NCBI GenBank assembly: GCA_963816715.1
Contig: CAWFMJ010000023.1
Coordinates: 332,213-396,212, forward strand
DNA from: an uncultured delta proteobacterium
Lineage (GTDB): Bacteria > Desulfobacterota > Syntrophorhabdia > Syntrophorhabdales > WCHB1-27
Reading direction: 5' to 3'
DNA: 64,000 bases
Shown here: positions 39,665 through 63,948 of the stretch, piece by piece
How positions within the stretch are numbered: position 1 is the first letter of the stretch
How the letters are laid out: each line of letters starts with the position of its first letter
Position numbers and translations under genes: made by a program
The notes under the pieces: model-generated
The model's database searches: none
What the model was told of the DNA's origin: nothing
Seen by the model: only the letters and a program-made list of their open reading frames with translations

Positions 39665-40111
39665 TTATCTCGAAAACTCCTCGTAGTTCTGCATCTTGTA
39701 TTGTCCCTCGGTCACCGTCGAAAAGTGAAAGATCGGCCGGTCGATGCGCCTCATGATCAGGGGACAATGAGTCATGCCGCCGGGGACGAATATGAGGCTG
39801 CTGCTCGTGATGATATGCTGCTCGTCCTCGAGCCAGAACTCGATCTCCGCGCCGAGATCGTAGGGGGCTTGCGAATTGCTGCCGAAAAAGCCGATGATCT
39901 CGTCTTCGGCGTGGGAATGGGCGTGGGCCATGGGCGTGTCTTCCTGCGGCGGCCGCAGGTACCAGGAGACGTTCATTTGAAAGGCGCCGTCGACCACCTG
40001 GTTGTCCATCCACAACACCCGCGTTGCCCACTTCGCGTACTCCGCCGCATACTCGGGCGAGAATCTGTTGGTCTTCAACTCACTCACGATGTGCTTCCCG
40101 TACTTCGACAT
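39665..40111 (-). CDS. cupin-fold protein
   Basis: 148 aa with a His-rich cupin motif (PMAHAHSHAEDEIIGFFG...IFVPGGMTHCP). It is the last gene of the leftward operon. Confidence 0.6.
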   Translation of the reverse strand: MSKYGKHIVSELKTNRFSPEYAAEYAKWATRVLWMDNQVVDGAFQMNVSWYLRPPQEDTPMAHAHSHAEDEIIGFFGSNSQAPYDLGAEIEFWLEDEQHIITSSSLIFVPGGMTHCPLIMRRIDRPIFHFSTVTEGQYKMQNYEEFSR

Positions 40112-40302
40112 GTCGCGTACCTCCGCGTTTTAATGTCTCCCTCGGGGAGAAAGCCCCTCGCCTTCCAGGCGGAGGCTTGAGTCCCCGAAGGAGACCTGAT
40201 CGCAGGAAATCCCCCGACTAAAGTCGGCGTCCGGTTTTCACCCGGCCATGCCAAACCTGTGGAAGATAATCAATTTCATGGGGAATTGCCGGTTCCCTTT
40301 CG

Positions 40303-41523
40303 TTATCGCTGGCCCCAACCCGGCGCCAGCTTGAGCTTATAGCCGCCGGCGACGGCAGGGTAAAAGAGCATCTGCTTTCCATCCCACCATTGATTGGCGG
40401 TGCTGGAAAAGAGGGCCAGGCCGGTCTCGTCGAATTTCAGATCGCCCATGACCGTTTGTTTGTACTCGGCGTTGCGGAACGCGTTCCTCACCGCGGTTTT
40501 GTCATAGGACTGAGCCCTTTCGATCGCCATGAACAGGGTTTGAGCCGTGCCGTAGAAGGCGCCAATGCTGACGGAGCGCTTGCCGAACTTGGCGGTATAG
40601 CGCTGTCCAAGCTCTTTGCAGAGCGGATAAGGAAAGTCTTCGGACCAGAATCCGTCGCATATGACGTAGTTGGCGTCTTTCCCCAGGGCGTTGGCAACTT
40701 CGATGGCCCAGGTTCCCTTCCAGCCGTGCAGGTACTTGACGTTAAGTTTCGATTCCTTTATTTGGCGGACGAGCGTAATGGCGTCCGTGGGGGCGCCGTA
40801 GAGCAGGATGGCATCCACGTTTTTCGCCTTCATTTTGAGGATCTGCGAGGAATAGTCCTTCGCGCCGATGGCCCACGGCTCATCAACGGCAAAAGTGTAG
40901 CCGTGTTCCTTCGCATGAGCCCGGAAACCCCCTGCAAAGGCAGCGCCGTCGGGGCTGTCTTCCATCAGCAGGGCGACATTCTTCGGTCTTTCCTCTTTCT
41001 TCAGCATTGTCTCCCAGACCACAAAGGGGACGTCTGAAGCGCCTCCCGCGGAAAAGAACATGAGGGAGGACCATTGGTACTTCTGGGGAACCCACATCTC
41101 CGGCCAGCACGTGCTCGTATGGTAAAACATCTGGTACTTCTCCGCCGTGTTGCAGGCAGGAATGCTCATCGTCGCCGAGTGGGTGCCGAGCATCAAGTCG
41201 ACCTTGTCTATCTTGGCCAGCTTTTCTATGGCCGCAGCCACCTTAGCCGGCTCGCTCTCGTCGTCCGCGGTGACCAGCTTTATGGGCAGTTTCTTCCCGG
41301 CCGACTTGATGAAAATGCCGCCCTTTTTGTTCCAGTCCGCCACCGCCTGCTCGTAGGCCCATTTCAACTCCAGCCCGTCCGGCGCAAGAGGTCCGGTCAT
41401 AGAGATAGGAGCGCCGATGAGAATCTCGTTCTTCGCGGCCCCCGCCGGCCCCGAAAACAGCAAGCACACCATGAGAACGGAAAAACAGAACCCAAGCCAC
41501 AACAAAACTTTCTTCCCCTTCAT
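40303..41523 (-). CDS. ABC transporter substrate-binding protein (LivK-type fold)
   Basis: ORF 40303..41574 trimmed to the ATG at 41521-41523 (MKGKKVLLWLGFCFSVLMVCLLFSGPAGA, a signal peptide). Confidence 0.9.
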   Translation of the reverse strand: MKGKKVLLWLGFCFSVLMVCLLFSGPAGAAKNEILIGAPISMTGPLAPDGLELKWAYEQAVADWNKKGGIFIKSAGKKLPIKLVTADDESEPAKVAAAIEKLAKIDKVDLMLGTHSATMSIPACNTAEKYQMFYHTSTCWPEMWVPQKYQWSSLMFFSAGGASDVPFVVWETMLKKEERPKNVALLMEDSPDGAAFAGGFRAHAKEHGYTFAVDEPWAIGAKDYSSQILKMKAKNVDAILLYGAPTDAITLVRQIKESKLNVKYLHGWKGTWAIEVANALGKDANYVICDGFWSEDFPYPLCKELGQRYTAKFGKRSVSIGAFYGTAQTLFMAIERAQSYDKTAVRNAFRNAEYKQTVMGDLKFDETGLALFSSTANQWWDGKQMLFYPAVAGGYKLKLAPGWGQR

Positions 41524-41583
41524 TCTCGTACCCCCCTTTGTTTGTTGATCGTACTCGTGGCGCCATCGCTCCACCTGTCTCTC

Positions 41584-42534
41584 CTAGCCCGCGACGGCCT
41601 CCTTCTTCCACAGCCTCACTATGCCGTTCGGCATGAAAAGCATGACAAGAATGATGATGATGCCGGAAAAAACGGGGTGGACTGAGGGGAAATAGATATT
41701 CGCCGCAGTAAAGACGCCCGTCATCATCAGCCCTCCTATAATCGGACCGACCACCGTTCCGCTTCCTCCGATCACGCACATGAGCACCGGATAGAGGGTC
41801 CATCTCAGGATGAGGAAGGCATCCGGGCTGACGTTAAAGAGGTAGTAGGCGTAGAGGCTTCCGCACATGCCGAAAAGGAAAGCGCTTATCGCGAAAGCGA
41901 GGACCTTGTACTTAAGGATGTGGATTCCGCTCGAGGCCGCCGCAGTCTCGTCCTCCCTGACTGCCACAAGGGCGAGGCCGACCCTTGACCTTGTCATGAA
42001 ATAGACCACCACTGTCGAGAGGAGAGCGAGGAAGAGGGCGGTCCAATAATGGGGTCTCATGGTCTTGTACGAGGTCGATGGCAGGATGATGCCGACGGGC
42101 CCGCCGGTGAACTGGCCTCCCTTGATGCACGCGACCTTCAGGATTTCCCCGAATCCGAGGGTCCCGAGGGCGAAGTAGTCGCCGTGGAGCTTGGAGAGCA
42201 GGGGTATGCCGATGCCGATGGCGAAGACCGCCGGGACGATGCCGCTCAGAGCCATCGTGACCGGGTCGAAGTAATAATGTCCCGTCCCGAACAGGTCCGA
42301 GCGCCAGATCATGGCCGTCGTATAGGCCCCAAGCGCGAAAAAGGCATGGGTGCCAAGGCTGATCTGGCCCGTGTACCCTGCGACGAGGTTCCATCCCTGC
42401 GCCAGCGTGATGTGGCAGAAAGTGAGGAACAGGAAATAAACAAGGTACGATTTCTCCGAGTCGGAGACGAACGGCACGAAGACGAGAAGCAGGACAACAA
42501 GAAGAAAGACGCCTATCGATCTCATATCGCGCAT
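41584..42534 (-). CDS. ABC transporter permease, LivM family
   Basis: 316 aa, polytopic, with GQISLGTHAFFALGAYT. Confidence 0.9.
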   Translation of the reverse strand: MRDMRSIGVFLLVVLLLVFVPFVSDSEKSYLVYFLFLTFCHITLAQGWNLVAGYTGQISLGTHAFFALGAYTTAMIWRSDLFGTGHYYFDPVTMALSGIVPAVFAIGIGIPLLSKLHGDYFALGTLGFGEILKVACIKGGQFTGGPVGIILPSTSYKTMRPHYWTALFLALLSTVVVYFMTRSRVGLALVAVREDETAAASSGIHILKYKVLAFAISAFLFGMCGSLYAYYLFNVSPDAFLILRWTLYPVLMCVIGGSGTVVGPIIGGLMMTGVFTAANIYFPSVHPVFSGIIIILVMLFMPNGIVRLWKKEAVAG

Positions 42535-42537
42535 GCC

Positions 42538-43431
42538 TTAAACCTTCTTGATTGACCGGACAAAGAGTCCCTCCGGCTTGAACAGCAACACGAGGAGAAA
42601 TATCGCATAGCCGACGGCGTCGGCCCACCCGCCGCTCACAAAAAAAGCCGCCCAACTCTCAAGCAGACCGAGGATGATGCCGCCGAGCAAGGCGCCGGAG
42701 ACGCTCCCCAAGCCTCCGAGGGCAAGAGCGATCATTGCCTTCAGACTAAAGATGAAGCCAAAATACGGATCGAAAGGATAAGTAGTCGAGAGCGCGATCC
42801 CCGCTATTCCCGACAAACCGATCCCGATGGCGAAGGTGACCATATTGACCCAATGGGGACCGATGCCCACGAGACTTGCCGCTCCCATGTCCTCTGAGGC
42901 CGCCCGCACGGCCTTCCCTATGAGAGTTTTTTTCAAGAAAAGCGTCACGCCCACGGTGGCGAGCATCGCCATTACGAATCCCATGAGGCGGGTAAACGAG
43001 ATATCGAGATTTCCCAAAGAGAGGGACGAAGAGGTGTACCCTGTGGATACCGACCTCGGATTCGGCGTCCACGCGACCGACATCAGATTTTCGAGAAGGA
43101 ACATAAGCCCCACGGCGATGAGGAGGCTGATGTTTTTGTCCTCCATTCTGATTGCCCTTCTGAAGAGCGTCTGGTACAAGCCGGCGCCGAGCGCCAGGGC
43201 GAAGGGAGCGAGGATAATCGTCGATAGGTAGGGGTCGATCTTGAGCAGCGTAAAGAGCCAGAAGCACAAATAGGCCATAAAGATGATGACGGCGCCCTGG
43301 GAGAGAAAAATGATGTGCATCGTCCCGAAGATAAGGCTGAGACCTATGGCGGCAAGGCCGTACATAGTGCCGAAGAGGATGCCGTTGACAAAGAGTTGAG
43401 AGAGGAGTCCGAAGGTCAGATAATCGAGCAT
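42538..43431 (-). CDS. ABC transporter permease, LivH family
   Basis: 297 aa with the N-terminus LSQLFVNGILFGTMYGLAAIGLSLIFG. Confidence 0.9.
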   Translation of the reverse strand: MLDYLTFGLLSQLFVNGILFGTMYGLAAIGLSLIFGTMHIIFLSQGAVIIFMAYLCFWLFTLLKIDPYLSTIILAPFALALGAGLYQTLFRRAIRMEDKNISLLIAVGLMFLLENLMSVAWTPNPRSVSTGYTSSSLSLGNLDISFTRLMGFVMAMLATVGVTLFLKKTLIGKAVRAASEDMGAASLVGIGPHWVNMVTFAIGIGLSGIAGIALSTTYPFDPYFGFIFSLKAMIALALGGLGSVSGALLGGIILGLLESWAAFFVSGGWADAVGYAIFLLVLLFKPEGLFVRSIKKV

Positions 43432-43436
43432 TAGTC

Positions 43437-44159
43437 TTACTCCAGTGTCCCCAGGTAGGCGTTCTGCACTTCAGGGTCGGCGAGGAGCTGTTCTCCGGGA
43501 CCCTCGAGAGCGATCTCTCCGGTCTTCATGACGTAGGCGTGATGAGAGACTTTCAAAGCCTGGTAAATGTTCTGTTCCACAAGAAGAATGGTCGTTCCTT
43601 TCCGGTTCAGCTCCTCGATCAACTCGAACATCGCGTTGACGACAAGGGGGCTTAAGCCCAGGGAAGGCTCGTCGAGCATCAGGATCTCCGGCTTGCTCAT
43701 CATCGACCGGCCGATTGCGAGCATCTGCTGTTCCCCTCCGCTGAGGGAGCCTGCAATCTGGCCATGTCTATTCTTGAGGATGGGGAACAGGTCGTAAACC
43801 TTATTCAGAGATTCCTGCAGGAATGGCCTGGCCCGGGAGACGTAAGCGCCCAGTTCGAGGTTCTCTTGCACGGTCAGCCGGCCAAAGAGCCTCCGGCCCT
43901 CGGGAACGAGGGAGATGCCCGCGTTCACCACCGCCTCCGGCTTAAGACCTAACAGATCCTTGCCGGCAAAGAAGATGCTGCCGCTCCCGGGACGCTTCAT
44001 TCCGGATACGGCCTTGAGGAGGGTCGACTTGCCGGCGCCGTTCGCGCCCACCAGGGCGACGATCGAGCCTTCGTCCACAGAGAGGGAGACGCCCCACAAG
44101 GCCTGAACGGCGCCGTAGGATACGGTTAAATTCCTAATTTCGAGCAAGGGTTTTTCCAA
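43437..44159 (-). CDS. ABC transporter ATP-binding protein, LivF family
   Basis: 240 aa with GANGAGKST, LSGGEQQML and LMLDEPS. Confidence 0.9.
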   Translation of the reverse strand: MEKPLLEIRNLTVSYGAVQALWGVSLSVDEGSIVALVGANGAGKSTLLKAVSGMKRPGSGSIFFAGKDLLGLKPEAVVNAGISLVPEGRRLFGRLTVQENLELGAYVSRARPFLQESLNKVYDLFPILKNRHGQIAGSLSGGEQQMLAIGRSMMSKPEILMLDEPSLGLSPLVVNAMFELIEELNRKGTTILLVEQNIYQALKVSHHAYVMKTGEIALEGPGEQLLADPEVQNAYLGTLE

Positions 44160-44877
44160 GATATGCCTCTATGACCTTCGCATCTTTCGCTATTTCTTCA
44201 GGCTTCCCATCGGCTATTTTCACCCCGTAATTAAGAACGGCAACCCTGTCGCAGGCGCGAAAGACGGCGTCGACCTTATGCTCGACCCACAGGATGGAGA
44301 TCCCTCTCTCTTCCCGGGCCCGCGTGATGACGTTGAGCAGCTTTTTGATCTCGGCCGCGTTCAATCCAGCCATCGGCTCATCGAGGAGCGTCACCGTAGG
44401 CGACGAGGCGAGGGCCCGTGCGACTTCGACTAACCGACGGTCCGACAAGGTCAGGTTGGAGGCGAGAACGTTCTTCTTCTCCTCTATTTCCACGATCTTC
44501 AAGGCAGCCATCGCCCTCGCCCTCGCACCCTTGGCGCCGCCGCCGCAGCCGTACACGGCGCCGACCATCACATTGTCGAAGGCCGTCATCTTGTTGAAAG
44601 TCTTCACGAGTTGATAGGTCCTGGAAATTCCCATATGGCACAGAGTGTGAGGCGGCGCGCCCGTAACCTTTTTCCCGTTGAGAAATACATCGCCCCGCTG
44701 CGGTCGGCACAGCGAGCTGATCACGTTGAAAAGGGTAGATTTGCCGGCGCCGTTGGGACCGATGAGACCGACCAGTTCTCCCTTGTTCAGCGACAGGCTC
44801 ACATCGGTGAGTACCATAAGCCCGCCGAAGGACATGTAAATCCCTTCTACCCTCATTAACGCGGCATCATCGGCCAT
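44134..44877 (-). CDS. ABC transporter ATP-binding protein, LivG family
   Basis: ORF 44134..45090 trimmed to the ATG at 44875-44877 (MADDAALMRVEGIYMSFGG), which has GAGGG upstream. It has GPNGAGKST and LLDEP. Confidence 0.9.
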   Translation of the reverse strand: MADDAALMRVEGIYMSFGGLMVLTDVSLSLNKGELVGLIGPNGAGKSTLFNVISSLCRPQRGDVFLNGKKVTGAPPHTLCHMGISRTYQLVKTFNKMTAFDNVMVGAVYGCGGGAKGARARAMAALKIVEIEEKKNVLASNLTLSDRRLVEVARALASSPTVTLLDEPMAGLNAAEIKKLLNVITRAREERGISILWVEHKVDAVFRACDRVAVLNYGVKIADGKPEEIAKDAKVIEAYLGKTLARN

Positions 44878-44891
44878 ACGAACCCTCGCGG

Positions 44892-45677
44892 TTACTTTGC
44901 ACAGATCCCTCCATCGGTCACGAGCACCTGGCCGCACATGTAGTTCGAGCCGGCGGAAGCGAGGAAAACAGCGGCGGCCTTCAATTCCTCCGGTTGCGCT
45001 TCCCGTCCTATCGGTATCCAGGCGCGAATCGTCTTCATGAACTCGGGATCGTCGTAGCCTCCCAATTTTGTCACGTAAAACCCCGGGCAAAGGGCGTTGA
45101 CGTTGATGCCATAGGGCGCATATTCCAGCCCCAGCTCACGGGTAAGGTTCACTACGGCGCCTTTTGCGCTGCAATAGGCAGGGGCGGGTATCACCGCCGA
45201 AGAACCGCTCAGTCCCCAGATGGAGGCGACATTGATTATCTTTCCGCTCTTTTGCTGCACCATCACTTTGAGCGCCTCTCTTGCACAGTAGAACGCGCCC
45301 TGGAGATCCACCGAGATAACCCTGTTCCACCACTCTGTCGTGTATTCGTGCAGGGGTTTCGGGACGTCGTTGGTATTGTCGGAAACGCCCGCGTTATTGA
45401 AGAGGACGTCGAGCCGGCCGAATTCGTCGACCGTCTTTCTCACCATGGCGACGACGTTCTCCTCATCTGTCACGTCGCAGAAGACCACGAGGGCCTTTCT
45501 TCCCATTTGCCTGACCTTCCGGGCAGTTTCTTCGAGGGCGGGCAGATTCCTGGCGGCACAGACGACATTGGCGCCGGCTTCTGCCATGGCCTCGGCAAAG
45601 GCTGCGCCCAGGCCGCTGGATGCGCCGGTGACCAGCGCCGTCTTATCGGTTAGATCAAACATGTGCGGATATTTCAT
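44892..45677 (-). CDS. short-chain dehydrogenase/reductase
   Basis: ORF trimmed to MKYPHMFDLTDK (GGAGGG upstream). It has TGASSGLG, NNAG and YCSAKGA. Confidence 0.9.
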   Translation of the reverse strand: MKYPHMFDLTDKTALVTGASSGLGAAFAEAMAEAGANVVCAARNLPALEETARKVRQMGRKALVVFCDVTDEENVVAMVRKTVDEFGRLDVLFNNAGVSDNTNDVPKPLHEYTTEWWNRVISVDLQGAFYCAREALKVMVQQKSGKIINVASIWGLSGSSAVIPAPAYCSAKGAVVNLTRELGLEYAPYGINVNALCPGFYVTKLGGYDDPEFMKTIRAWIPIGREAQPEELKAAAVFLASAGSNYMCGQVLVTDGGICAK

Positions 45678-45773
45678 GTTCCCTCCGTGCGGCATCGCCA
45701 ATTACCGGGGCTCAGCGCCCCCTCCCGGTGGAACGAGAGACCGCCGTACTGAACGGAAAGGCTCTGACAGGTT

Positions 45774-47459
45774 TTACTTGTCGACCACATAGACGACCCC
45801 CTGGTTCCCGTCCACGAGTATCCACTGGCCTGTCTTGATTTTCTGGGTGGCCTCGACAGTCCCGGAGACCGCCGGAACTCCGAATTCTCTAGCCATGATG
45901 ACCGGGTGGGAAAGAGCGCCGCCGCCGTCGGTCACAAGACCCCTTATGAGGCTGAAGACGACCGTCCAGGCAGCCGAGGTGCCGGGAGCGACGAGTATCT
46001 CTCCCGGTTCTATCTGACCCAGGTCCTTCGCGCTCATGATCACCCGGGCCTTCCCTTCGGCAATCCCCGGCGCCGCCGCTGCGCCGTAGAGGTCGGCTCT
46101 GAGCTCTTTCCTCACGATGGGAACCTGCGTCGAAACGGAAAGGGTGGGGTCGCTCTTGAGCACGGCCTGCGCCTGGGATATGTCGCCGTAGAAGGGCGCC
46201 GGCTCGATTTCCAGGTATTTCTGCCAGAGGGTCTTTCGCTTTTCCACGTAGGGGCGGAGGTTGATCCGGCCCATCGGTATTGCGGCCTTTCTGATCTCGT
46301 TGGGATGGAGGAAAAAGACGTCGTCTGCTTCGTCAATGCATCCCGCTGCCGCAAAGCGCCGACCGAACTCGCCGATGATCCATCTTCCCAGGGCGCCTGC
46401 ATAGAAATCGCAGAAATAGGTATGGTCTTCGCTCCAAAACGCCGCGTTCTGACCCCCTTTGACAAGCAGCGCGAAGGCCTCTTTCTGGGCCTCCGGGCAT
46501 TTCGCCAGCACAGCTTTTTCTGCTTCTTCCCGCTCCTTAACCACCCGATCCCGCTCGGCATCAAAGGGAAAGACGTCGGACCTCATAAGAAATCGAATCC
46601 GTTCGAGGGCAAGCTCAGGCTTTTCGATCCAGGCCGGCGTGTCGTAGGCGTGCATTCTCTCACATCTCCAGCCGTGATCAATAAGAAAGGCGTCCAGCAA
46701 GTCGAGCCACTTCTTGCCTTGGGGCGTTTTTGTCAGCTCCTTCAAGCAATCGCCGTTTCCCTCATTTGCATCGAAGACCGGCTGAAGCCCGCAGTCGACG
46801 GCTTGTCTGCCCAATTCCCAGAGTCCTCGGACAACCGACACATCCTGGTTCTCGGTTCCGCCCATCAGGGCGGTGAAATTCGGATCGATGGCGGCGTCGA
46901 CGCCGAACAGATTGCGCCAGACCTGTTGCAGTATGCCGCTGATGTAGTAGACCGCCATCAGCATGATCATGTGGGTTTCGCCTACTTTTCTGCTGATTAC
47001 GTAAGCGAAATCGAGGAAGAAGGTGAGGAGCTCGTTGTTGCTTAAGTGCTCGATGTCCTTCCACTGCCTCAGTCCCCGGGATTCCTTCGCCTCCTTGTAC
47101 ATCTGGAGGAGGTCCGTCTTGAGGGGATCCCAAACGCCGTAAAAGTCTTCCAGGAACGGCTTGATCTTCTTCCGGAATACGGGCTCCCGGGCCTTGGCCT
47201 CCTCAGGCGTTGTCCTGATTCCGGATATATAGGGATATCCGTTGACGAATCGCGAATCCCATCCATGAGTGGTGGGAAGAGACAAGGTTTCGGCGGCCCA
47301 TCGGAAGCCATAATAGAACCATTGCCATCCAATGCCCATGTACGTCGGCTTAAGAGGGGGCCTGCCGTGGATTACGTCGCAGAGAAGCACGCCGTATTCC
47401 TGAGGGTCCTTCTCGTCGTCGAATTCATAGAAACTCAGGTCATACGCATCGTGTATCAT
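45774..47459 (-). CDS. PEP-utilising-enzyme family protein, phenylphosphate synthase alpha (PpsA)-like: unique N-domain + phospho-His swivel domain
   Basis: 561 aa. The C-terminal ~80 aa read ILVAPGTSAAWTVVFSLIRGLVTDGGGALSHPVIMAREFGVPAVSG, the mobile His domain. There is no ATP-grasp part. Confidence 0.75.
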   Translation of the reverse strand: MIHDAYDLSFYEFDDEKDPQEYGVLLCDVIHGRPPLKPTYMGIGWQWFYYGFRWAAETLSLPTTHGWDSRFVNGYPYISGIRTTPEEAKAREPVFRKKIKPFLEDFYGVWDPLKTDLLQMYKEAKESRGLRQWKDIEHLSNNELLTFFLDFAYVISRKVGETHMIMLMAVYYISGILQQVWRNLFGVDAAIDPNFTALMGGTENQDVSVVRGLWELGRQAVDCGLQPVFDANEGNGDCLKELTKTPQGKKWLDLLDAFLIDHGWRCERMHAYDTPAWIEKPELALERIRFLMRSDVFPFDAERDRVVKEREEAEKAVLAKCPEAQKEAFALLVKGGQNAAFWSEDHTYFCDFYAGALGRWIIGEFGRRFAAAGCIDEADDVFFLHPNEIRKAAIPMGRINLRPYVEKRKTLWQKYLEIEPAPFYGDISQAQAVLKSDPTLSVSTQVPIVRKELRADLYGAAAAPGIAEGKARVIMSAKDLGQIEPGEILVAPGTSAAWTVVFSLIRGLVTDGGGALSHPVIMAREFGVPAVSGTVEATQKIKTGQWILVDGNQGVVYVVDK

Positions 47460-48640: not shown

Positions 48641-48675
48641 AGTCAACACAAAGTTTCTTATGACTTCATAAGGCT
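48641..48675 (+). promoter_or_regulatory. conserved palindromic box A (LysR-type T-N11-A site)
   Basis: AGTCAACACAAAGTTTCTTATGACTTCATAAGGCT. The core CTTATGA-C-TTCATAAG is at 48657-48672. It lies between the divergent genes 48516(-) and 48784(+). Confidence 0.55.
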
Positions 48676-50417: not shown

Positions 50418-50455
50418 GAGTCAACACAATAAGCTTATGATTTCATTAGAAAGTC
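50418..50455 (+). promoter_or_regulatory. conserved palindromic box B
   Basis: GAGTCAACACAATAAGCTTATGATTTCATTAGAAAGTC. The core is at 50434-50449, 39 nt from the lysR-type start and 92 nt from the 50547 start. Confidence 0.55.
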
Positions 50456-56458: not shown

Positions 56459-56494
56459 GTTCAACTCAAAGTTTCTTATGAATTTATAAGGTTC
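56459..56494 (+). promoter_or_regulatory. conserved palindromic box C
   Basis: GTTCAACTCAAAGTTTCTTATGAATTTATAAGGTTC. The core is at 56475-56490, between the divergent carboxyltransferase and ubiX genes. Confidence 0.55.
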
Positions 56495-56705: not shown

Positions 56706-57287
56706 TTGAAAAGAATGATCATTGGCATAACCGGGGCGTCAGGGGCGATATACGGCGTAAGAATCCTCGAGGTCCTCTCGGGGCTGGGTGTTGAGACGCA
56801 TGTGGCGGTAACGGCGCCCGCCGCGAAGACCCTGTCAATTGAAACGAAATACACGCTTTCGCACGTCGAGTCTTTCGCTTCATATACCTACGACGTTGCA
56901 GATGTCGGCGCCCCGATAGCCAGCGGTTCGTATCCGGTAGATGGTATGATCATAGCGCCTTGCTCGGTGAAGACCCTTTCGGCTATTGCCAATTCCTACG
57001 CCGACAACCTTCTCTCCCGTGCGGCGGACGTGACGCTCAAGGAAAGGCGAAGGCTTGTTCTTCTGGTGAGAGAGACGCCCCTGCACGAGGGGCATATTGA
57101 ATTGATGGCGAAAGTGACCCGGATGGGCGGCATAATCATGCCGCCCATCCCTGCATTCTACCATCTGCCCAAGACAATAGACGACCTCATTAACCACACC
57201 GTCGGCAAGGCTCTCGACCTCTTCGGAATTGATGCACGCCTGTTCAAAAGGTGGGGGGTCGAAGACAAAGGAGAGGGTTCCCCATAA
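56706..57287 (+). CDS. ubiX: flavin prenyltransferase UbiX
   Basis: 193 aa with MIIGITGASGAIYGVRILEVL, MIIAPCSVKTLSAIANSYADNLLSRAADV and LVLLVRETPLH. The real start may be the ATG at 56715. Confidence 0.9.
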   Translation: MKRMIIGITGASGAIYGVRILEVLSGLGVETHVAVTAPAAKTLSIETKYTLSHVESFASYTYDVADVGAPIASGSYPVDGMIIAPCSVKTLSAIANSYADNLLSRAADVTLKERRRLVLLVRETPLHEGHIELMAKVTRMGGIIMPPIPAFYHLPKTIDDLINHTVGKALDLFGIDARLFKRWGVEDKGEGSP

Positions 57288-57348: not shown

Positions 57349-57451
57349 TCATATCTGTTTAAACGAAACGGATGCCGCCGTTGTCGCCCCCCCCCGGCCG
57401 ACCCGGAACGCATTGTCAGGCAAACGCGCTTTCTGCAATGAATCTGCCCGC

Positions 57452-58648
57452 TCAGGGAATGCGCTCCACGTTCACCCATCCGCCATACTCCACCTTTCCT
57501 TTCACCAGTTTTTGATAGGGAAGAGGATGGGATATGGCGTGATGCTTCAGTCCGTACGTCACATCGCCGCCGAACTCGCACGTGCCGAACAGACAGTCAA
57601 CCTTGTCCATACTCTCCCACTTGGCCTTCACGACCGTTGGGTCGAGGCTGTTCGCCGCCTGGATGACCCGTGAAAGCACCCAGAGCCCGTTGGGGTTGAA
57701 CAGGAAGAAGGGGAGTTTTTTGCCGTTCTTGTCAAAGGCCTCGTCCATGAGCGCGGGATTTCCCTTTGCATGAGGCGTAAGACCCAGGCAGGTGATGTTG
57801 TCGGCCGCTGCTTTGCCGGAGACGGCCATAATCACTTGCGCCGGGGTAAGACATTGCAGGATGATTGGCTTGTGGTTCCCTAATTCCCTTAGGCCTTTCG
57901 CGATATTGCCGTGATGGACCGGCGTCCCATTGAGAATGAAAAGTGCATCGGCGCCCTTGATGGCGTTGATCTTTGCCGCTATGGGGCTGTAGTCTTCGGC
58001 CTCGCTGGGAAACGTGACGGTGTCGCCGACGATGGCGTAGCCGAGGTCCGCGATCATCTTCTTGACGATAGGCACGAGGTACGGCACTGACCCGTCGTCA
58101 GTGGCGGCCAGAGCCAACGTCTTCACCGTGGGATACTCCTTTTTCAGCACCTTCCAGGAGGCGATGCATGTTCCTATGCTGGCGTCGAAGCCGAGAAAGC
58201 CGTAAGGCGTGCTCTTGTCCACTTCTCCGGGCTGGTTGCTGCAGTAGCCCGAAACGTGGAGCACCTTATTCTGCTCGAAAATCGGGGAGGAGCCGGTGGA
58301 GAAGAAACCCGTCGGCCCGACCACGAATTTCACCTTGTGGTCGTAGACGAGCTTGTTGGCGCCTGCCGCAATGCCGTCCAGCGTGCTCTTTCCGTCTTCA
58401 CCCACCAGCTCTATGTTGTACCTCTGGCCCTGGACGGTAATGCCGCCTTTCTCGTTGATCATCTCGGCCACGGCTTTCACGTGGCCTTCTTCGACGGCGT
58501 CAAAAACGGAATACCACCCGCTCACGCATAGCAGATAGCCTATCTTCAACGTCTTTGGAGCGGCCTTCTGCTGCGCCGCTCCGAGAGGGGGCAACAGCAG
58601 AATAAGCGCAACAACCGCTGCTATGCCCAAAACGAGAACCGACGACAT
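57452..58648 (-). CDS. ABC transporter substrate-binding protein (LivK-type fold)
   Basis: ORF trimmed to MSSVLVLGIAAVVALILLLPPLGAAQQ (a signal peptide), followed by KIGYLLCVSGWYS...INEKGGITVQGQRY. Confidence 0.85.
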   Translation of the reverse strand: MSSVLVLGIAAVVALILLLPPLGAAQQKAAPKTLKIGYLLCVSGWYSVFDAVEEGHVKAVAEMINEKGGITVQGQRYNIELVGEDGKSTLDGIAAGANKLVYDHKVKFVVGPTGFFSTGSSPIFEQNKVLHVSGYCSNQPGEVDKSTPYGFLGFDASIGTCIASWKVLKKEYPTVKTLALAATDDGSVPYLVPIVKKMIADLGYAIVGDTVTFPSEAEDYSPIAAKINAIKGADALFILNGTPVHHGNIAKGLRELGNHKPIILQCLTPAQVIMAVSGKAAADNITCLGLTPHAKGNPALMDEAFDKNGKKLPFFLFNPNGLWVLSRVIQAANSLDPTVVKAKWESMDKVDCLFGTCEFGGDVTYGLKHHAISHPLPYQKLVKGKVEYGGWVNVERIP

Positions 58649-58897
58649 TGCCCGTACTTTGTCCCTGCCTTTTTCGCCTCTCATCCTCTTCCTCCTTTTT
58701 TGTGCACCTTCGATCTTTTCCCGCCTCCTTCATCCAATGACCCGGCGCTGCTCCTCAGCCTTGCCCTCCCTCCACAACTTGTATACAAGCAATGGCAGGC
58801 AAGCCGTTCTTTGCCCCAAAACGATACTCGAAAGGCCTTAGCGTCATTTCTTCACGTCACCGTGTCGGATCCCGGCGCGTCCGAAGGTATTGCCGGC

Positions 58898-59989
58898 CTA
58901 TCCCGGGAACATAACGACGTTCTTGAGCGCCTCCCCCTTTTCGGCAGAGGCAAAGGCTTCATTGATCTTTTCGAGAGGATAGCGGCCGGAAATAAGCTCG
59001 TCGAGTTTGATCCGTCCCGTTTTATAGAGGTTCACCATCTTCGGTATATCTACCTGCAGGTTGATGGAGCCGTTGAAAGCGCCGGTGATCACCCGTTCCG
59101 ACATCATGACGAGGTCGAATATGGAGATGGCTATGGTAGGGGTTGCCAGGGGCGGCAGTCCGAGAATGACGGTCATGCCGCGCCGCGCCGACATCTTGAA
59201 GGCGTTCTCTACGACTTCGGGGATGCCGACCGAGACAAAGACGTAATCGGCCCCGCGGCCATCCGTCAGCTCTTTCACCACGGCCGCCGGGTCTTCCTTG
59301 CTTGAATTGACAATATGGGTAGCGCCGAAGAGGCGGGCCGCTTCCAGTTTCTTATCGGCTATGTCGACGGCAATGATCGGGTCGGCGCCGACGAAGGCAG
59401 CGCCCTGAAGACAGTTGAGCCCGAGACCGCCGGCGCCGATCACTACGACGCTGCTCATGGGCTTCACCCGGGCGCGGTTCAGGACGGCGAGGAACCCCGT
59501 GGTGGCGCCGCAGGCCAGGAGCGCAGCCCGGTCAAAAGGCATATCCGGGGGGATGATGACCGCCTGCGATTCGTGAGCATTGATATATTCGGCAAAACCG
59601 GCATAGTTGGCCATTCTCGAAAACCGCTCGCCCGCTTTGTTGTAGAGAGGGCTCAACGCCGGCGGCTCTTGCGCGATGCACAGGTGGGGAAGCCCCGTTC
59701 TGCAATAGAAGCACTTCCCGCATGATTTTATGAGAGAGACGATCACGCGGTCTCCGGGCTTTATCGATTTGACCTGTTTCCCGACTTCTTCGACAATGCC
59801 GGCAGATTCGTGACCGGCGATGAGGGGAAGCGGGTCGAAGCAGATCTCGCCCTTGATCGTGTGGACATCGCTATGACAAATGGAGGTTGCCGCGACGCGG
59901 ACCCTTGCCTCCTGTTCCTTTGGAGGCTCCAATTCCACTTCTTCTATGGTCAAAGGTTTGCCGAATTCCCGAAGCACCGCAGCTTTCAT
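58898..59989 (-). CDS. zinc-dependent alcohol dehydrogenase (MDR family)
   Basis: 363 aa with ICHSDVH, GHESAGIVEEVG, the structural-zinc Cys cluster CGKCFYCRTGLPHLC and VIGAGGLG. Confidence 0.9.
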   Translation of the reverse strand: MKAAVLREFGKPLTIEEVELEPPKEQEARVRVAATSICHSDVHTIKGEICFDPLPLIAGHESAGIVEEVGKQVKSIKPGDRVIVSLIKSCGKCFYCRTGLPHLCIAQEPPALSPLYNKAGERFSRMANYAGFAEYINAHESQAVIIPPDMPFDRAALLACGATTGFLAVLNRARVKPMSSVVVIGAGGLGLNCLQGAAFVGADPIIAVDIADKKLEAARLFGATHIVNSSKEDPAAVVKELTDGRGADYVFVSVGIPEVVENAFKMSARRGMTVILGLPPLATPTIAISIFDLVMMSERVITGAFNGSINLQVDIPKMVNLYKTGRIKLDELISGRYPLEKINEAFASAEKGEALKNVVMFPG

Positions 59990-60011
59990 AGCAACCTCCC
60001 CGTTCGACCGA

Positions 60012-61997
60012 TCACAATTCCACGACGGCGTTGAAAGCCTCGTGGGTAGCAGCCGCCAGGCTTCGGGGACGCAAGCAATCGCCGACCACGAAGACCTCCG
60101 TTTCGGGGATGAGTCTCCTCAGCTCCGCTACTTTTTCTCTGCGGGCCCTCATGCCGGCAGCCAAGACGACGGTATCGGCCGGGTATTCCATTTCCCGGAA
60201 CGAGCTGGTGATGGTTTGCACGCCGGAGTCGGTGATCGCCTGCATCCTCGTATTGACGACGACCTTGACGCCATTCTCCTTGAGCAACTCGAACAAACCG
60301 GTCACCGCGATAGGCGAACCCTCTTTCCCGAGCGATTCGGCTGCCTGCATCTCCAGGATGGTCACCGTCTTCCCCTGGCGGGCGAGAGCCAGGGCCGATT
60401 CTCCGCCGGTAATGCCCGCGCCGATGACGACGACGTTCTTGCCCACCTCGACCTTTCCGCCGTCCACATCGCCTGCCCAGTGCACGTTCGGCCTGTCGAT
60501 GCCCGGCACTTTGGGGATGAAAGGAACAGCGCCGATGGCGATGATCAGGGCGTCGGGATTCACCTCGTTGACCGTCGCGGCGGTGACTTCCGTCCCGTAC
60601 GTGATCGTTGCCCCGCAGTTTTCCGTCTGGCCGACGAGCCAGTCGAGGAACTTCTTCAGGTCGCCCTTGAAGGGCAGCTTGGAGCCGATTTCGAGCATGC
60701 CGCCCAGATGGTCCGTCATTTCGTACAGGACAACGTCGTGCCCTCGTTTCATGCCGGTCAAAGCGGCCTGCATGCCTCCCGGACCTCCGCCGACGATCAT
60801 GATTCTTTTCTTTTTGTCGGCTTTGGCAATCGAATGCTCTGTCGGGTATTCTACCCCCCTTGCGGCAATGGGGTTAACGGAGCAGCGGGTAGGAAGGAAC
60901 GTGTGTCTGGGCCTGCCGGCGCACCAGTTGCACCGTATGCAAGGACGGACTTCTTTCTGTTGCCCGGCCAGGGATTTGCGCATGAGATCAGCATCGGCGA
61001 TGAAAGGACGGCCCAGGGCGACGAAGTCGGCCCATCCTTCGGCGAGGATCTTTTCGGCATTCTCCAGCGTCAATATCGATCCAACGGTGGTGACGAGGAG
61101 GTTCGTCTGCTTCTTTGCCATCTCCGCGTAGTGGACGTTGTACATATGCGGCATGTACAGGGGCTGGATCATATGATGGGCGAGGGAGGGAATGGACAGC
61201 AGGCCGGCGGAGACATGGACGATGTCGATCTTATCCTCGATCATTTTGAGGAATTCGATCACCTCGGCAGGCCGGAGACCCCCCTCGATTTTCTCGTCGA
61301 GGCTTATGCGGTACTCGATGATCAGATCGTTGCCGCACTTCTTGCGGATGGCTTCGAGCACGGCGAGGGGAAAACGCGCCCGTTTCTCGAGGCTGCCTCC
61401 CCACCGATCGGTCCTGTTATTCCACAGAGGAGAGAGAAACTGGGCGAGGATGTGGCCGTGGGCGCCGTGGAGCATAACCATTTTGAAGTTTGCCGACTTG
61501 CAGCGGCAGGCCGCCTCCGCAAAGGCCTCGATCGTTTCGGCGATGTCGTCCGGCGTCATCTCTTTCGCCTCGGTAGGCATCCTCCCTTCAAGGAGCGCTG
61601 CCTGCTCTTCGAGCCCGCTCGGTATGCGGGAAGCGCCGAGAGGCCGCTGACCCTTCACGAAGGTGTTGTGACCGCCGTGATTCAGCTCGATCGATGCAAC
61701 GGCGCCGTAGCGCGTGATTCCTTCGTAAAGTTTGTTGAGGCCGGGAATGGCGCCGTCCGTGGAGAGGTTCAACTGGCCTTCGTGGTTCTTGCCGGGGAGG
61801 TTGATCCCCGAGTCGCCCACGGTGACGATGGCCGGGCCTCCCCGGGCGAAGGCACGGTGATATGCTAAAAGCTCCGGCGTTGCCTGGCCATCCGCGCTGG
61901 CGAGAAAGGGAAGGGTAGGGGGGGTCTCGATGCGGTTCTTGAAGTCGATCCCCTTTATCGTGATGGGGGTGAATACGTGCTCGTAGCTGTGCGCCAT
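60012..61997 (-). CDS. Old-Yellow-Enzyme family FMN/[4Fe-4S]/FAD oxidoreductase (second copy)
   Basis: ORF 60012..62087 trimmed to the ATG at 61995-61997 (MAHSYEHVFTPITIKGIDFKNRI), which has GGAGGAG upstream. It has RPCIRCNWC, IMIVGGGPGGMQ and VVVIGAGITGGE. Confidence 0.9.
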   Translation of the reverse strand: MAHSYEHVFTPITIKGIDFKNRIETPPTLPFLASADGQATPELLAYHRAFARGGPAIVTVGDSGINLPGKNHEGQLNLSTDGAIPGLNKLYEGITRYGAVASIELNHGGHNTFVKGQRPLGASRIPSGLEEQAALLEGRMPTEAKEMTPDDIAETIEAFAEAACRCKSANFKMVMLHGAHGHILAQFLSPLWNNRTDRWGGSLEKRARFPLAVLEAIRKKCGNDLIIEYRISLDEKIEGGLRPAEVIEFLKMIEDKIDIVHVSAGLLSIPSLAHHMIQPLYMPHMYNVHYAEMAKKQTNLLVTTVGSILTLENAEKILAEGWADFVALGRPFIADADLMRKSLAGQQKEVRPCIRCNWCAGRPRHTFLPTRCSVNPIAARGVEYPTEHSIAKADKKKRIMIVGGGPGGMQAALTGMKRGHDVVLYEMTDHLGGMLEIGSKLPFKGDLKKFLDWLVGQTENCGATITYGTEVTAATVNEVNPDALIIAIGAVPFIPKVPGIDRPNVHWAGDVDGGKVEVGKNVVVIGAGITGGESALALARQGKTVTILEMQAAESLGKEGSPIAVTGLFELLKENGVKVVVNTRMQAITDSGVQTITSSFREMEYPADTVVLAAGMRARREKVAELRRLIPETEVFVVGDCLRPRSLAAATHEAFNAVVEL

Positions 61998-62043
61998 GGT
62001 GAAAAGCTCCTCCTTCGTCACTAACGGTTGGTGCGGTAGGAGA

Positions 62044-63948
62044 TCAGGAAATAAGGGTTCCTTCCCTGACGGCCCGGTCGGAACCAATGGCCCTCGTTTT
62101 TGACCGTCTCCAATGCGACCTGATCATTTCCGGGATGCCGACGAGGCCGTCGGGCATGCCATAAACGACGATAATGAGAATGATCGCCGAAATGTACGGA
62201 ACAAACTGCTTGAGGCCGCGGAAGATCTCGGGCACGACGATCAGCAGGGCCGTGCCGAGGATCGGGCCGACAAAACTGTTCAAACCTCCGATCAATACGT
62301 ACATGAAGAGCCACAGCGTTGCGTTGAGGTTGAAGCTCGTGTAGGAGATGGTGAGGTTGTAGTGCGCATAGAGCGCGCCGGCAATGCCGACAAAGAAACA
62401 ACCTATCGCGACGGCAAGGACCCGATACCGCGCTTCGTTGATGCCGACGCTCGACGCGAGGAGATGAGATTGGGAAACGGCCTTCAGGTTCGTCCCGATG
62501 CGGGAAAATTCGAACCGGTAAATCATGGCGAGGCAAAGGGCGGTTATCCCGAGAAAAAAGTAGTAGTAGACGCGCTTTGGAGCGAGCAGCAGGGGGGTGA
62601 CGCCGGAAAGGCCGCTGTAGCTTCCCGTCCATATGCCGAAAGTAAAAATGAAATAGAGAATGCCGGACCCGAAGAAAAGGCATACCATTGCGTAATAAAG
62701 CGCCCTCAGCCGGGCGAAGGGATAGCCTATCAGTACGCCGATCAACATCGAGACGACCCCGCCTAGGGGAACGGTGATCCAGACCGGCCAACCCAGCCAC
62801 TTTGCGGGTATGGCGGCGGCGTATGCCCCGATGCCCATGAAAGCGGCATGAGCGAGCGGCATCTGGCCCGAGGTTGTAACCAGGCGCAGGCTGGAGGTGG
62901 CGATCATATAGATCAGGGCCAGGATAAAGACGTGGAGCATATACGTTTTTTTCACGAGGAGCGGCAGAAATATAAGAAATGCGACCACAACCAAAACTCC
63001 GACGACCTTCTTGAGATTGATTTTCCCTTCCTTGGAGCTTGCTTCGCTGACGATGTGGCCGTGCCGTTCTTCCATCTGCAGCTCACGGCCGAAAAACCCT
63101 TGGGGTCTGAAGAGAAGAATGAGCACGATCAGGCCGAGCGTGATCGCCTCGCTGCCCGCGCCGCTGACGAACAGAGGCACCGTGGCGTCCAACGCGCCGA
63201 GGACCAGGCCGGAGAAGAAGACCCCCCCGATGCTGCCCAGGCCGCCCAGGATAACGATGACAATTGCTTTCAGGAGAATATAATCGCCCATGAAGGCGTT
63301 GAGGTTCAGGTAGGCCGCCATCAGACACCCGGCAACCGCCGCCAGCCCGCAGGCGATGACGGAAGCGAGGGCGGAAATGCGGTGAACGTGAATGCCTTGC
63401 AGGAGGGCGCCCACGCGGTTTTGACCGACAGCCATCATCTGTTGGCCGGGTTTCGTCTTGTTGATGAACAACAGGGTCGCGGCGAGGAGAGCCGCGCCGA
63501 TGGCGAAGGTGACCACCCGTTCGGCGCTCACCATGGTGAGGCCGAGGTTCACGGAGCCATCGGCCAACGTCGGCACTTTTTGGACGCTGATCCCTATGGC
63601 GAGATTCACCGAGGTCTGGATAATGACCGAGATGGCGATGCAGATCACGATGACCCGGTTCATGTCGTCCCGCAAAGGGCGAAAACAGAAGCGTTCGAGG
63701 ACTATGCCGAATGCCGCGACGATTGCCACGGAGAACAGCAGGGCCCACCAGACGTTGATTCCCCAAACGACCGCGATCTGGTAGGCTATGTAGCCTCCCA
63801 TCATGTAAATAACGCCGTGAGCCAGGTTGAGGATGCCGAGAATATTGACGAGAAAAGCAAAACCGAGGGCCACCAATATGTACATGGACGATATGGCAAG
63901 CCAGTTAACGATTGTTGTTGCGACTAGTTCCCATAACCCGCCTCTCAT
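62044..63948 (-). CDS. fused LivH-LivM type ABC transporter permease
   Basis: 634 aa. The first ~290 aa are LivH-like (ISSMYILVALGFAFLVNILGILNLAHG). After a charged linker (ELQMEERHGHIVSEASSKEGK) comes a LivM-like half (SGQMPLAHAAFMGIGAYAA). Confidence 0.85.
   Translation of the reverse strand: MRGGLWELVATTIVNWLAISSMYILVALGFAFLVNILGILNLAHGVIYMMGGYIAYQIAVVWGINVWWALLFSVAIVAAFGIVLERFCFRPLRDDMNRVIVICIAISVIIQTSVNLAIGISVQKVPTLADGSVNLGLTMVSAERVVTFAIGAALLAATLLFINKTKPGQQMMAVGQNRVGALLQGIHVHRISALASVIACGLAAVAGCLMAAYLNLNAFMGDYILLKAIVIVILGGLGSIGGVFFSGLVLGALDATVPLFVSGAGSEAITLGLIVLILLFRPQGFFGRELQMEERHGHIVSEASSKEGKINLKKVVGVLVVVAFLIFLPLLVKKTYMLHVFILALIYMIATSSLRLVTTSGQMPLAHAAFMGIGAYAAAIPAKWLGWPVWITVPLGGVVSMLIGVLIGYPFARLRALYYAMVCLFFGSGILYFIFTFGIWTGSYSGLSGVTPLLLAPKRVYYYFFLGITALCLAMIYRFEFSRIGTNLKAVSQSHLLASSVGINEARYRVLAVAIGCFFVGIAGALYAHYNLTISYTSFNLNATLWLFMYVLIGGLNSFVGPILGTALLIVVPEIFRGLKQFVPYISAIILIIVVYGMPDGLVGIPEMIRSHWRRSKTRAIGSDRAVREGTLIS

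Follow-up and report, generated by a model that had tools for sequence, protein, structure and literature searches.

The gene set between 39.6 and 57.3 kb of the window (the whole 64,000-nucleotide stretch of contig CAWFMJ010000023.1, from an uncultured delta proteobacterium of the Syntrophorhabdales) comprises a split dikinase, a cysteine hydrolase, a LysR-type regulator, two UPF0261 proteins and a carboxyltransferase (CT) without a biotinyl domain. We give about an even chance to the reading that it encodes an anaerobe-type variant of the Hpe/Acv/Xcc pathway, that is, a phosphorylation-dependent, biotin-type carboxylation, here under LysR control and with the biotin carrier and biotin carboxylase acting in trans; to judge from the homologues, a hydroxyaryl ketone or its alcohol would be the most likely class of substrate. 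An earlier note on this DNA had found that the set maps onto no described pathway. This does not hold, since a split dikinase, a UPF0261 kinase and a biotin-less PycB-type CT are the component list of the Hpe/Acv/Xcc systems; the outline given in the same note, of import followed by ATP-dependent phosphorylation and carboxylation, is still the best one available. Read directly from the DNA are the domain architectures, the catalytic motifs, an operator shared among the genes and gene neighbourhoods conserved across phyla.

In the hydroxyphenylethanone pathway of the Hpe/Acv/Xcc type (PMC9618137; bioRxiv 10.1101/2022.04.28.489975; PMC12167813; PMC12624787), 4-hydroxyacetophenone or acetovanillone is phosphorylated either by a dikinase acting on the phenolic hydroxyl (HpeHI or AcvAB, homologous to PpsAB and CreHI) or by MarK, a UPF0261 protein that is an ADP-forming kinase for acetovanillone and related phenolic ketones and is encoded directly upstream of acvCDEF (PMC12624787). 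The acetyl group is next carboxylated by a biotin carboxylase of three subunits: a separate biotin carboxyl carrier protein (BCCP), a biotin carboxylase and a CT with 26% identity to PycB. The product loses its phosphate to a NagD-like HAD phosphatase and is then cleaved in a CoA-dependent manner. In the anaerobic p-ethylphenol pathway the homologous genes are XccABC, which lie in a cluster with hpeHI homologues. The window shares with these systems (HpeHI-HpeCBA-HpeD of Rhodococcus rhodochrous GD02, AcvAB-AcvCDE-AcvF of Sphingobium sp. SYK-6, MarK-AcvCDEF of Novosphingobium aromaticivorans and the XccABC cluster of Aromatoleum aromaticum EbN1) a two-component dikinase resembling rifampin phosphotransferase (RPH) and/or a UPF0261 protein; a PycB-type CT of ~450-490 aa that has no biotin domain and bears the signature RDGNQSLWGATG; short-chain dehydrogenases/reductases (SDRs); CoA-dependent follow-up genes, present in related loci; and a chemistry independent of oxygen.

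With every step taken from homology, the pathway in the window would begin with import of the substrate by a Liv-type ABC system, and SDRs would interconvert secondary alcohol and ketone or reduce the beta-keto product. The dikinase (47494-48516 and 45774-47459) would transfer the beta-phosphate of ATP via the swivel histidine to a phenolic or enolic hydroxyl, with formation of AMP and Pi, and UPF0261 protein 1 would be an additional kinase, forming ADP, that acts on this compound or on one related to it; the CT (54952-56379) would move CO2 from carboxybiotin to the carbon beside the keto group, yielding a beta-keto acid; genes at other places in the genome would have to provide biotin carrier and biotin carboxylase; and the RutB-like cysteine hydrolase, a fixed partner of the kinase, would stand in the position of the HAD phosphatase of the aerobic pathway.

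Homologues of the large subunit of the dikinase at 65-79% identity number more than 600, with Syntrophorhabdales named as the source of many, and a scan of one genome per species, with the open reading frames (ORFs) clustered into families, yielded 55 loci, all from metagenome-assembled genomes (MAGs) of anaerobes: Syntrophorhabdales, Desulfobacterales, Desulfatiglandales, Desulfomonilaceae, Syntrophaceae, Chloroflexota, Moorellales and Dethiobacter. Counted among the 54 loci with a large subunit, as lower bounds given that many contigs are short, its partners are the PPDK_N subunit (45), the cysteine hydrolase (33), UPF0261 (29), CT (25), biotin carboxylase (20), DUF2284 (19), an AMP-forming ligase (15), DUF35 (12) and thiolase (12); ligases are found in at least 15 related loci. 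The gene-neighbourhood comparison suggested in the earlier note thus finds kinase, hydrolase, one or two UPF0261 proteins and CT co-conserved across phyla, in dozens of MAGs of anaerobes, and their co-occurrence is far beyond chance.

Three kinds of locus can be told apart. In type A loci, both dikinase genes (PPDK_N and large subunit), UPF0261 and the hydrolase are found with a CT-BCCP fusion next to a biotin carboxylase, several SDRs, a DUF35/thiolase pair and a CoA ligase, with an extra 4-hydroxybenzoyl-CoA-reductase-like Mo enzyme in some Syntrophorhabdales. In type B, the type of the window, the hydrolase and both dikinase genes are accompanied by UPF0261, an SDR, a Liv-type transporter, a CT that lacks a biotin domain and a ligase that is PaaK-like or AMP-forming. 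In type C, kinase and hydrolase are joined by DUF2284 and by two genes assigned by eye, one radical-SAM-like and the other for an enoyl-CoA hydratase, and there is no CT. Kinase and hydrolase therefore seem to be a portable core, occurring in type C loci without CT or UPF0261. In the type C loci L035-L049 and L059, which have neither CT nor UPF0261, the hydrolase is more distant (~31%), and CxxxCxxC was seen by eye in the radical-SAM-like protein. The closest relative of the window (L070; large subunit 78%, CT 68%, SDR 78% and LysR 57% identical) has an AMP-forming CoA ligase and a HAD-like gene and no biotin carboxylase. A Syntrophus MAG (L069; CT 67% identical) has a HAD gene, an AMP-forming ligase and a Liv-type transporter beside the CT-SDR pair, together with a gene for a Phenol_MetA_deg outer-membrane channel (5812-6810 of that locus), a weak hint at a phenolic substrate.

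The CT (475 aa, 54952-56379, minus strand; start revised from 56412 to 56379) is a PycB/OadA-type subunit made up of HMGL-like and PYC_OADA domains without a biotinyl domain, and its 120 best homologues have the same two domains and 445-488 aa each. The earlier note had regarded the lack of biotin as peculiar, which was not borne out: the CTs of Hpe, Acv and Xcc systems normally have no biotin domain, the carrier being a separate subunit. Type B CTs of anaerobes are 52-61% identical to it, those of MarK/Acv-type clusters 41-44% over 96-98% of its length, CT-BCCP fusions 37%, and PycB, OadA and transcarboxylase 5S 31-34%. In tblastn searches the best annotated plasmid relatives, at the same 41-44% identity and 96-98% coverage, lie in three clusters: those of Sphingomonas bisphenolicum pBAR1 and of a Pseudomonas putida YC-AE1 plasmid have the order MarK-like, BCCP, biotin carboxylase, CT, HAD, and that of a Rhizobium leguminosarum plasmid has AcvA-like, AcvB-like, BCCP, biotin carboxylase, CT, HAD, acetoacetate-CoA ligase.

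The CT resembles PycB, OadA and 5S in its HMGL-like TIM barrel and PYC_OADA domain, its metal ligands (Asp, Lys and HxH, in the motifs RDGNQS, LKDQGG and HPH) and its PGGM loop, and, like 5S, it has no C-terminal biotinyl domain; it differs, apart from the low identity, in having Asn for His in RDxHQS and a one-residue insertion after SLW, and in its catabolic context outside central metabolism. In an alignment of 33 CTs, window-type and Acv-type sequences share RDGNQSLWGATG and (I/L/V)KD(Q/P)(G/S)G; the corresponding motif is RD(A/G)HQSL, without the inserted residue, in PycB, OadA and 5S, and RDAQQSLWG in type A. A neighbour-joining tree without bootstrap places the window type as sister to the Acv type, with type A next and PycB/OadA as outgroup. 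The CT retains 38 positions at which PycB, OadA, Acv-type, type A and type B sequences do not vary, including the metal ligands and the PGGM loop, and no family-invariant position is lost in window-type CTs among the 33 sequences; the Ser/Thr after PGGM is presumably the catalytic proton-transfer residue. In its sequence there is no sign that the window CT has given up biotin chemistry. A biotinyl-domain remnant behind the CT was ruled out, with only 60 bp between the CT stop and the next gene. Substitutions at the metal site occur elsewhere: type A CT-BCCP fusions (for example L001 4377-6116) have IEDASG, with Glu instead of the metal-binding Lys of xKDxxG, which in pyruvate carboxylase, OadA and 5S is carbamylated, and LEDQGG is found in two type B CT paralogues (L046 11767-13188 and L031 3754-5196). 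Each of these two Bacillota loci has a pair of paralogous CT genes without biotin domain, at 57-61% identity to the CT of the window (L031 16385-19139 and 3754-5196; L046 11767-15940); in L046 the pair directly flanks the UPF0261 gene.

Both parts of the split PEP (phosphoenolpyruvate)-synthase-like enzyme described in the earlier note are confirmed. The ATP-grasp subunit (340 aa, 47494-48516, minus strand) consists of PPDK_N only (residues 18-331, E=4.5e-85), matches the 387-aa PDB chain 9goj (E=1e-49) and is ~35% identical to PpsB, CreI and an AcvB-like protein. In the large subunit (561 aa, 45774-47459, minus strand), the phospho-His swivel domain (PEP-utilizers, residues 483-554) is the sole domain matched; it is preceded by an N-terminal region of ~480 aa, the Rph-type substrate-binding region, over which homologues carry PF27448 (Rph_4th). 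The swivel motif, TDGGGALSH, has the form T-x-x-G-G-x-x-x-H, and T/S-x-x-G-G-x-x-x-H is a feature of two-component dikinases (PMC12167813). End-to-end alignment at ~25% identity with PpsA of Azoarcus KH32C, CreH of Rhodococcus ruber and an AcvA-like protein bears out the earlier comparison of the subunit split with phenylphosphate synthase; the same division into a large His-carrying and a small ATP-grasp subunit is found in the PpsABC/PpcABCD/UbiX systems of Thauera, Aromatoleum and Azoarcus KH32C and in the phenylphosphoamidate synthase of Desulfatiglans anilini. PpsA, CreH and the AcvA-like protein are ~43-46% identical among themselves, and the window dikinase is a separate clade of two-component dikinases. 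A tblastn search of plasmids with the large subunit gave full-length matches only at up to 28% identity. RPH has the same three modules (ATP-grasp, substrate-binding domain and swivel His), and the large subunit aligns to RPH residues 551-867 (E=1.7e-22), but RPH is a single polypeptide that confers antibiotic resistance, whereas the ATP-grasp domain of the window is a separate protein encoded in a catabolic operon.

That the two proteins might be nothing more than an ordinary PEP synthase, split in two and surrounded by unrelated operons, is extremely improbable. The best NCBIfam names for the small subunit are indeed PEP synthase models, and the operon to the right of the set is indeed unrelated, but every score is far under the PEP synthase cutoffs, and both the common operator and a synteny that extends across phyla argue against the idea. 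Pfam finds no PEP/pyruvate-binding TIM barrel in the large subunit, which has an Rph-type domain instead, and an ordinary split PEP synthase was rejected on these grounds.

The two UPF0261 (Tm-1/MarK family) proteins are both full length with both UPF0261 domains; under NCBIfam NF002674 they score 321 and 280 bits, the cutoff being 335 and a MarK-like reference reaching 469. Protein 1 (50547-51809, plus strand) matches the MarK structure 9mpy (E=5e-40), is 52-66% identical to UPF0261 proteins of related clusters and keeps the D-T-K ATP motif and the equivalent of His219, one of the two substrate-binding histidines of MarK (His219 and His304, MarK numbering; PMC12624787), with no equivalent of His304; it is a probable ADP-forming kinase by its sequence. 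Protein 2 (51794-53074, plus strand), a divergent paralogue, has D-E-R instead of D-T-K, Leu at the position of His219 and no equivalent of His304. L018 encodes a counterpart that is 49-51% identical and has the same DERE motif, by which protein 2 is a conserved subtype; with its ATP lysine lost, it is probably non-catalytic or differently specialised. The earlier note had remarked on the missing TIM-barrel partner of UPF0261 proteins, and tblastn and motif scans likewise found no such partner in the 64 kb.

Kinase, hydrolase, UPF0261 and CT genes are tied together by an operator. A 37-nt repeat contains the palindrome CTTATGA-N2-TCATAAG, of which exactly three sites with up to two mismatches occur in the 64 kb versus 0.14 expected by chance, so that the shared operator reported in the earlier note is real. 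One copy lies in each of three divergent promoter regions: CTTATGACTTCATAAG (48657-48672) between the kinase operon and the hydrolase gene, ~10 bp upstream of a promoter-like TTGACT-17-TAAAAT on the minus strand; CTTATGATTTCATTAG (50434-50449) between the LysR gene and the first UPF0261 gene, flanked on both strands by promoter-like sites; and CTTATGAATTTATAAG (56475-56490) between CT and UbiX, ~10 bp upstream of TTGAAC-17-CATAAT on the minus strand. This placement, with each of the three copies ~10 bp upstream of the -35-like hexamer of a promoter-like site, would fit a LysR-type activator, the promoter scan being a consensus match only. The LysR-type regulator (HTH_1 and LysR_substrate; 49432-50373, minus strand, start revised to 50373) has counterparts at 51-57% identity in L010, L012, L027, L056, L057 and L070. 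The core of the operator, TTATGANNTCATAA, also occurs directly upstream of CT genes in other MAGs (L001-4, L011, L055, L057 and L070) against a chance expectation that we estimate at ~0.1 in roughly 1 Mb, and it follows that CT and kinase genes keep their regulatory link from genome to genome. With its putative operator, the 39.6-57.3 kb segment behaves as one LysR-type regulon.

The earlier note had treated all 24 kb up to the end of the window as a single unit that included an old yellow enzyme (OYE) reductase, a Zn-dependent alcohol dehydrogenase (ADH) and a second Liv importer. These genes form a neighbouring operon (57.4-64 kb; 57452-63948, minus strand; Pfam and NCBIfam domains) of a substrate-binding protein (SBP2, 57452-58684), Zn-ADH (58898-59989), OYE/FeS/FAD reductase (60012-62087) and fused LivHM (62044-63948), and they fall outside the conserved set of ~60 related loci. 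The operon is probably separate from the kinase/CT system, because no operator copy precedes it within the window and none of the ~60 loci has OYE, ADH or second Liv genes beside the kinase.

The cysteine hydrolase (202 aa, 48784-49392, plus strand, start revised to 48784) is a RutB-like member of the isochorismatase family (Isochorismatase, E=3.5e-33) with RutB (8bkd, E=1e-28) as its best solved relative. Aligned to 8bkd, the triad motifs are VIDMQ for Asp, IAKYSYSGF for Lys and ATNVCVEST / TGIATNVCVEST for Cys. Its scores lie below the equivalog cutoffs for both RutB (126 vs 378) and BiuH (90 vs 370), and it is therefore neither; to the hydrolases of Syntrophorhabdales-type clusters it is 60-70% identical. 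It may do the work of the missing phosphatase, or its presence may indicate a substrate with an amide group. The latter thought leads to an alternative that we consider unlikely, in which a non-phenolic substrate, an amide, ureido or amine compound, would be activated by phosphorylation (compare aniline to phenylphosphoamidate) and then hydrolysed, with dikinase and hydrolase as the core and CT and UPF0261 as add-ons. It would account for the hydrolase being the commonest neighbour of the kinase (33 of 54 loci) and its best conserved partner (60-70%), with an intact Asp-Lys-Cys triad and RutB and biuret hydrolase as closest relatives, and for the many type C loci that pair kinase and hydrolase without CT; L007 has an additional amidohydrolase and a creatinase-like gene, and the aniline kinase subunit Pas-alpha is likewise only ~27-28% identical to Pps-alpha. 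Yet the window CT is sister to the aryl-ketone CTs, type A clusters resemble a complete route from aryl ketone to aroyl-CoA, and the aniline system uses UbiD-type carboxylases, which were found in none of the loci examined.

UbiX, a flavin prenyltransferase (56706-57287, plus strand; NF004685, 262 vs a cutoff of 188 bits), is encoded divergently from the CT, with the third operator region between the two, and has 58% identity to its counterpart in the canonical pps-ppc-ubiD-ubiX phenol cluster of Azoarcus KH32C. The earlier note had listed UbiX without UbiD as part of the set: UbiX is real and no UbiD is encoded in the 64 kb, but UbiX does not belong to the conserved set, being present in no other of the ~60 related loci, and is thus specific to the window locus. 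A phenol- or aniline-type route, in which a prenylated-FMN-dependent UbiD enzyme encoded elsewhere would carboxylate the ring of an aryl phosphate and UbiX would be its visible trace, would suit both the position of UbiX in the third divergent promoter region, with its 58% identity to UbiX of a canonical cluster, and the split architecture of the kinase, which is that of PpsAB. We regard it as very unlikely: tblastn with Azoarcus KH32C queries found no UbiD, PpcA, PpcB, PpcD or PpsC in the window or any related locus, no PpcABCD homologue is present in either, and the kinase co-occurs instead with biotin-type CT and biotin carboxylase. For the window and the related loci themselves, UbiD-type carboxylation was accordingly rejected. 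The likeness to the Pps/Ppc systems is confined to the subunit split, the swivel motif and a nearby UbiX; the window differs in having no PpsC, UbiD-family carboxylase subunits or Ppc-delta phosphatase, in its low identity to PpsA (25%) and in its carboxylation partner, a biotin-type CT.

Several findings weigh against an Hpe/Acv/Xcc-type pathway. The large subunit is only ~25% identical to every characterised member versus 43-46% among those, and in NCBIfam it misses the PRK08296 cutoff (best score 192 vs 578 bits), which PpsA (1300), CreH (1168) and the AcvA-like protein (772 bits) all exceed; a phenolic substrate can therefore not be assumed for the kinase, and a non-phenolic one is quite possible. 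Identity of the two UPF0261 proteins to MarK is no more than 26-29%, and one or both of the substrate-binding histidines are missing from them. Dikinase and UPF0261 kinase types stand together in one regulon, and the commonest partner of the kinase is a cysteine amidohydrolase that has no role in the known Hpe pathway. Neither biotin carboxylase nor BCCP was detected in the 64 kb by tblastn (five biotin carboxylase and four BCCP queries) and motif scans, in agreement with the earlier note, and a six-frame [ACVSEQ]MK[MLT] scan of the window for a hidden BCCP gave only a chance match within a thiolase. A NagD-type HAD phosphatase was likewise not found in the window (tblastn with three reference HADs and the HAD-like genes of L005, L069 and L070), nor was an acetoacetate-CoA-ligase-like or AMP-binding (beta-ketoacid CoA ligase) gene in the 64 kb. 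Ten of 12 window-type CT loci have no biotin carboxylase in the DNA at hand, many of their contigs being short.

The window thus differs from the known Hpe/Acv/Xcc systems in a kinase of a separate clade (~25% and 35% identity) that scores under the PRK08296 cutoffs; in holding both kinase types in one regulon; in having no adjacent BCCP, biotin carboxylase, NagD-type HAD phosphatase or acetoacetate-CoA-ligase-type enzyme; in a RutB-like cysteine hydrolase as constant partner; and in LysR control, Liv-type uptake and strictly anaerobic hosts.

It is quite unlikely that the window CT works without an ATP-dependent biotin carboxylase of its own, either carboxylating the phosphorylated substrate directly, in the manner of PEP carboxylase, or as an ATP-saving transcarboxylase with a carboxyl donor. 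Such an enzyme would be in keeping with the absence of biotin carboxylase and BCCP from the window, and of biotin carboxylase from ten of the 12 loci with the same CT type, when these genes are always adjacent in characterised clusters and type A; with the two CT paralogues of L031 and L046 flanking UPF0261, as a two-CT transcarboxylase would need; and with the ATP saving, which would presumably suit energy-limited anaerobes. However, the window CT keeps all positions that are invariant in biotin-dependent PycB, OadA, Acv-type and CT-BCCP proteins, including the metal site and the PGGM-x-T/S loop; many loci are short contigs; and shared housekeeping AccB/AccC would be the ordinary alternative. 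Moreover, L034 (Dethiobacter) and L046 (Moorellales) encode an 80-aa BCCP-like protein and a biotin carboxylase in the same gene string as a window-type CT, and in L058, a fragment with no CT, genes of both kinds stand next to the kinase. These minimal BCCP-like proteins, of 73-80 aa and encoded directly upstream of biotin carboxylase (L034 11691-11933, L046 ~6526-6747, L058 1457-1696), have C-M-K-T instead of the canonical biotinylation motif (A/V)-M-K-(M/L).

Less likely than not, in our judgement, is the possibility that kinase, hydrolase, UPF0261 and CT make up a widespread, distinct anaerobic activation pathway and not simply the Hpe pathway transferred to anaerobes. This would mean that the substrate may be something other than a 4-hydroxyphenyl ketone, perhaps a nitrogen-containing compound or a plain enolisable ketone; that two mechanistically different kinases may act in sequence; and that the cysteine hydrolase may carry out dephosphorylation or release, or the CT may be transcarboxylase-like or phosphate-driven and need no ATP-dependent biotin carboxylase of its own.

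Descriptions of aromatic ketones being carboxylated after phosphorylation date from 2022-2025 and are confined to aerobes and one denitrifier, and a literature search for this anaerobic cluster turned up nothing beyond the papers on the aerobic Hpe/Acv pathway. The locus and its ~60 relatives show a distinct clade of this machinery to be widespread among strict anaerobes, most of them uncultured (Syntrophorhabdales, Desulfobacterales, Desulfatiglandales, Chloroflexota and Moorellales/Dethiobacter), new with respect to the known pathway in having its own regulator and operator and a cysteine hydrolase partner without counterpart. Identification of the substrate would add an anaerobic route for phenolic ketones derived from lignin or pollutants, or for another class of compounds; would give functions to many metagenome annotations of the kind "PEP-utilizing enzyme", "Tm-1-like" and "oxaloacetate decarboxylase alpha"; and would test whether energy-limited anaerobes spend up to three ATP equivalents on activation or carboxylate more cheaply.

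The remaining genes of the regulon were mapped, like those above, from the ORF listing and Pfam and NCBIfam profile scans of the window proteins; every ORF named in the earlier note exists where it had been placed and has the domains given to it, and the motif strings quoted were all found in the translations. On the minus strand, from 48516 down to 39665, the PPDK_N and swivel proteins are followed by an SDR, LivG, LivF, LivH/LivM, a substrate-binding protein and a cupin-like ORF; the hydrolase gene (plus strand) diverges from this operon, and then come LysR (minus), the two UPF0261 genes and an SDR (plus), an SDR and the CT (minus), and the divergent UbiX (plus). The first SDR (SDRa, 44892-45701, minus strand; adh_short_C2, E=3e-61) is encoded directly 3' of the kinase genes and is 63% identical to an SDR of L056. 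The Liv-type transporter consists of two ABC ATPases with ABC_tran and BCA_ABC_TP_C domains (43437-44877, minus strand: LivF-like 43437-44159 and LivG-like 44134-44877, the LivG start revised to ATG 44877, which is preceded by a GAGGG ribosome-binding site), two BPD_transp_2 permeases (41584-43431, minus strand: 41584-42534 and 42538-43431) and a periplasmic binding protein (SBP1, 40303-41574, minus strand; Peripla_BP_6, E=3e-43), to which binding proteins adjoining the kinase in ~12 related loci are 25-40% identical. The last gene of this kinase/transport operon (148 aa, 39665-40111, minus strand) had been called a cupin: cupin motifs are visible by eye (HAHSHAEDEIIGFFG and FVPGGMTHCP), but the Pfam Cupin_2 match is weak (E=0.11), and related loci contain no homologue.

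SDRc (54095-54892, minus strand; adh_short_C2) is the conserved partner directly 3' of the CT; the pair is kept in L069 and L070, where the SDR is 78% identical to SDRc. SDRb (53140-53934, plus strand) has a +1 frameshift near 53205: ATG 53140 encodes MAEQTLLGKTAIVTGGGKGLGK and then leaves the frame, and the remainder reads in the frame of 53257. The cause is one extra G (…GGG AAA G|GCC ATA…), which puts the N-terminal 22 codons, including the nucleotide-binding motif TGGGKGLGK, out of frame with the rest. The same frameshift is present in L068, an independent Logan assembly of the same organism, and is therefore probably a real pseudogene or a shared read error.

A mobile/defence island (18266-39044) separates the two catabolic clusters of the window. 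It encodes an HD-domain protein, a NERD nuclease, a phage-type integrase (21860-23092), a DDE transposase (30198-31520), a DUF4062/HATPase_c_4 protein, a RhuM/Fic protein (34428-35432) and a TOTE-system AEP primase-helicase (36786-38513). The second cluster (254-17352) comprises an enoyl-CoA hydratase, a TetR regulator, an SCPx-type thiolase (2492-3691) adjoining a DUF35 Zn-ribbon/OB protein (3752-4201), a second OYE/FeS/FAD reductase (4298-6304), two more thiolases (6340-7518 and 16150-17352), two Liv-type binding proteins, permease and ATPase genes (one ATPase ORF, 12911-13423, seems C-terminally short), a LuxR regulator and an SDR. The thiolases of the window are found only here, 30-50 kb away from the regulon, and the cluster could supply CoA-dependent downstream steps.

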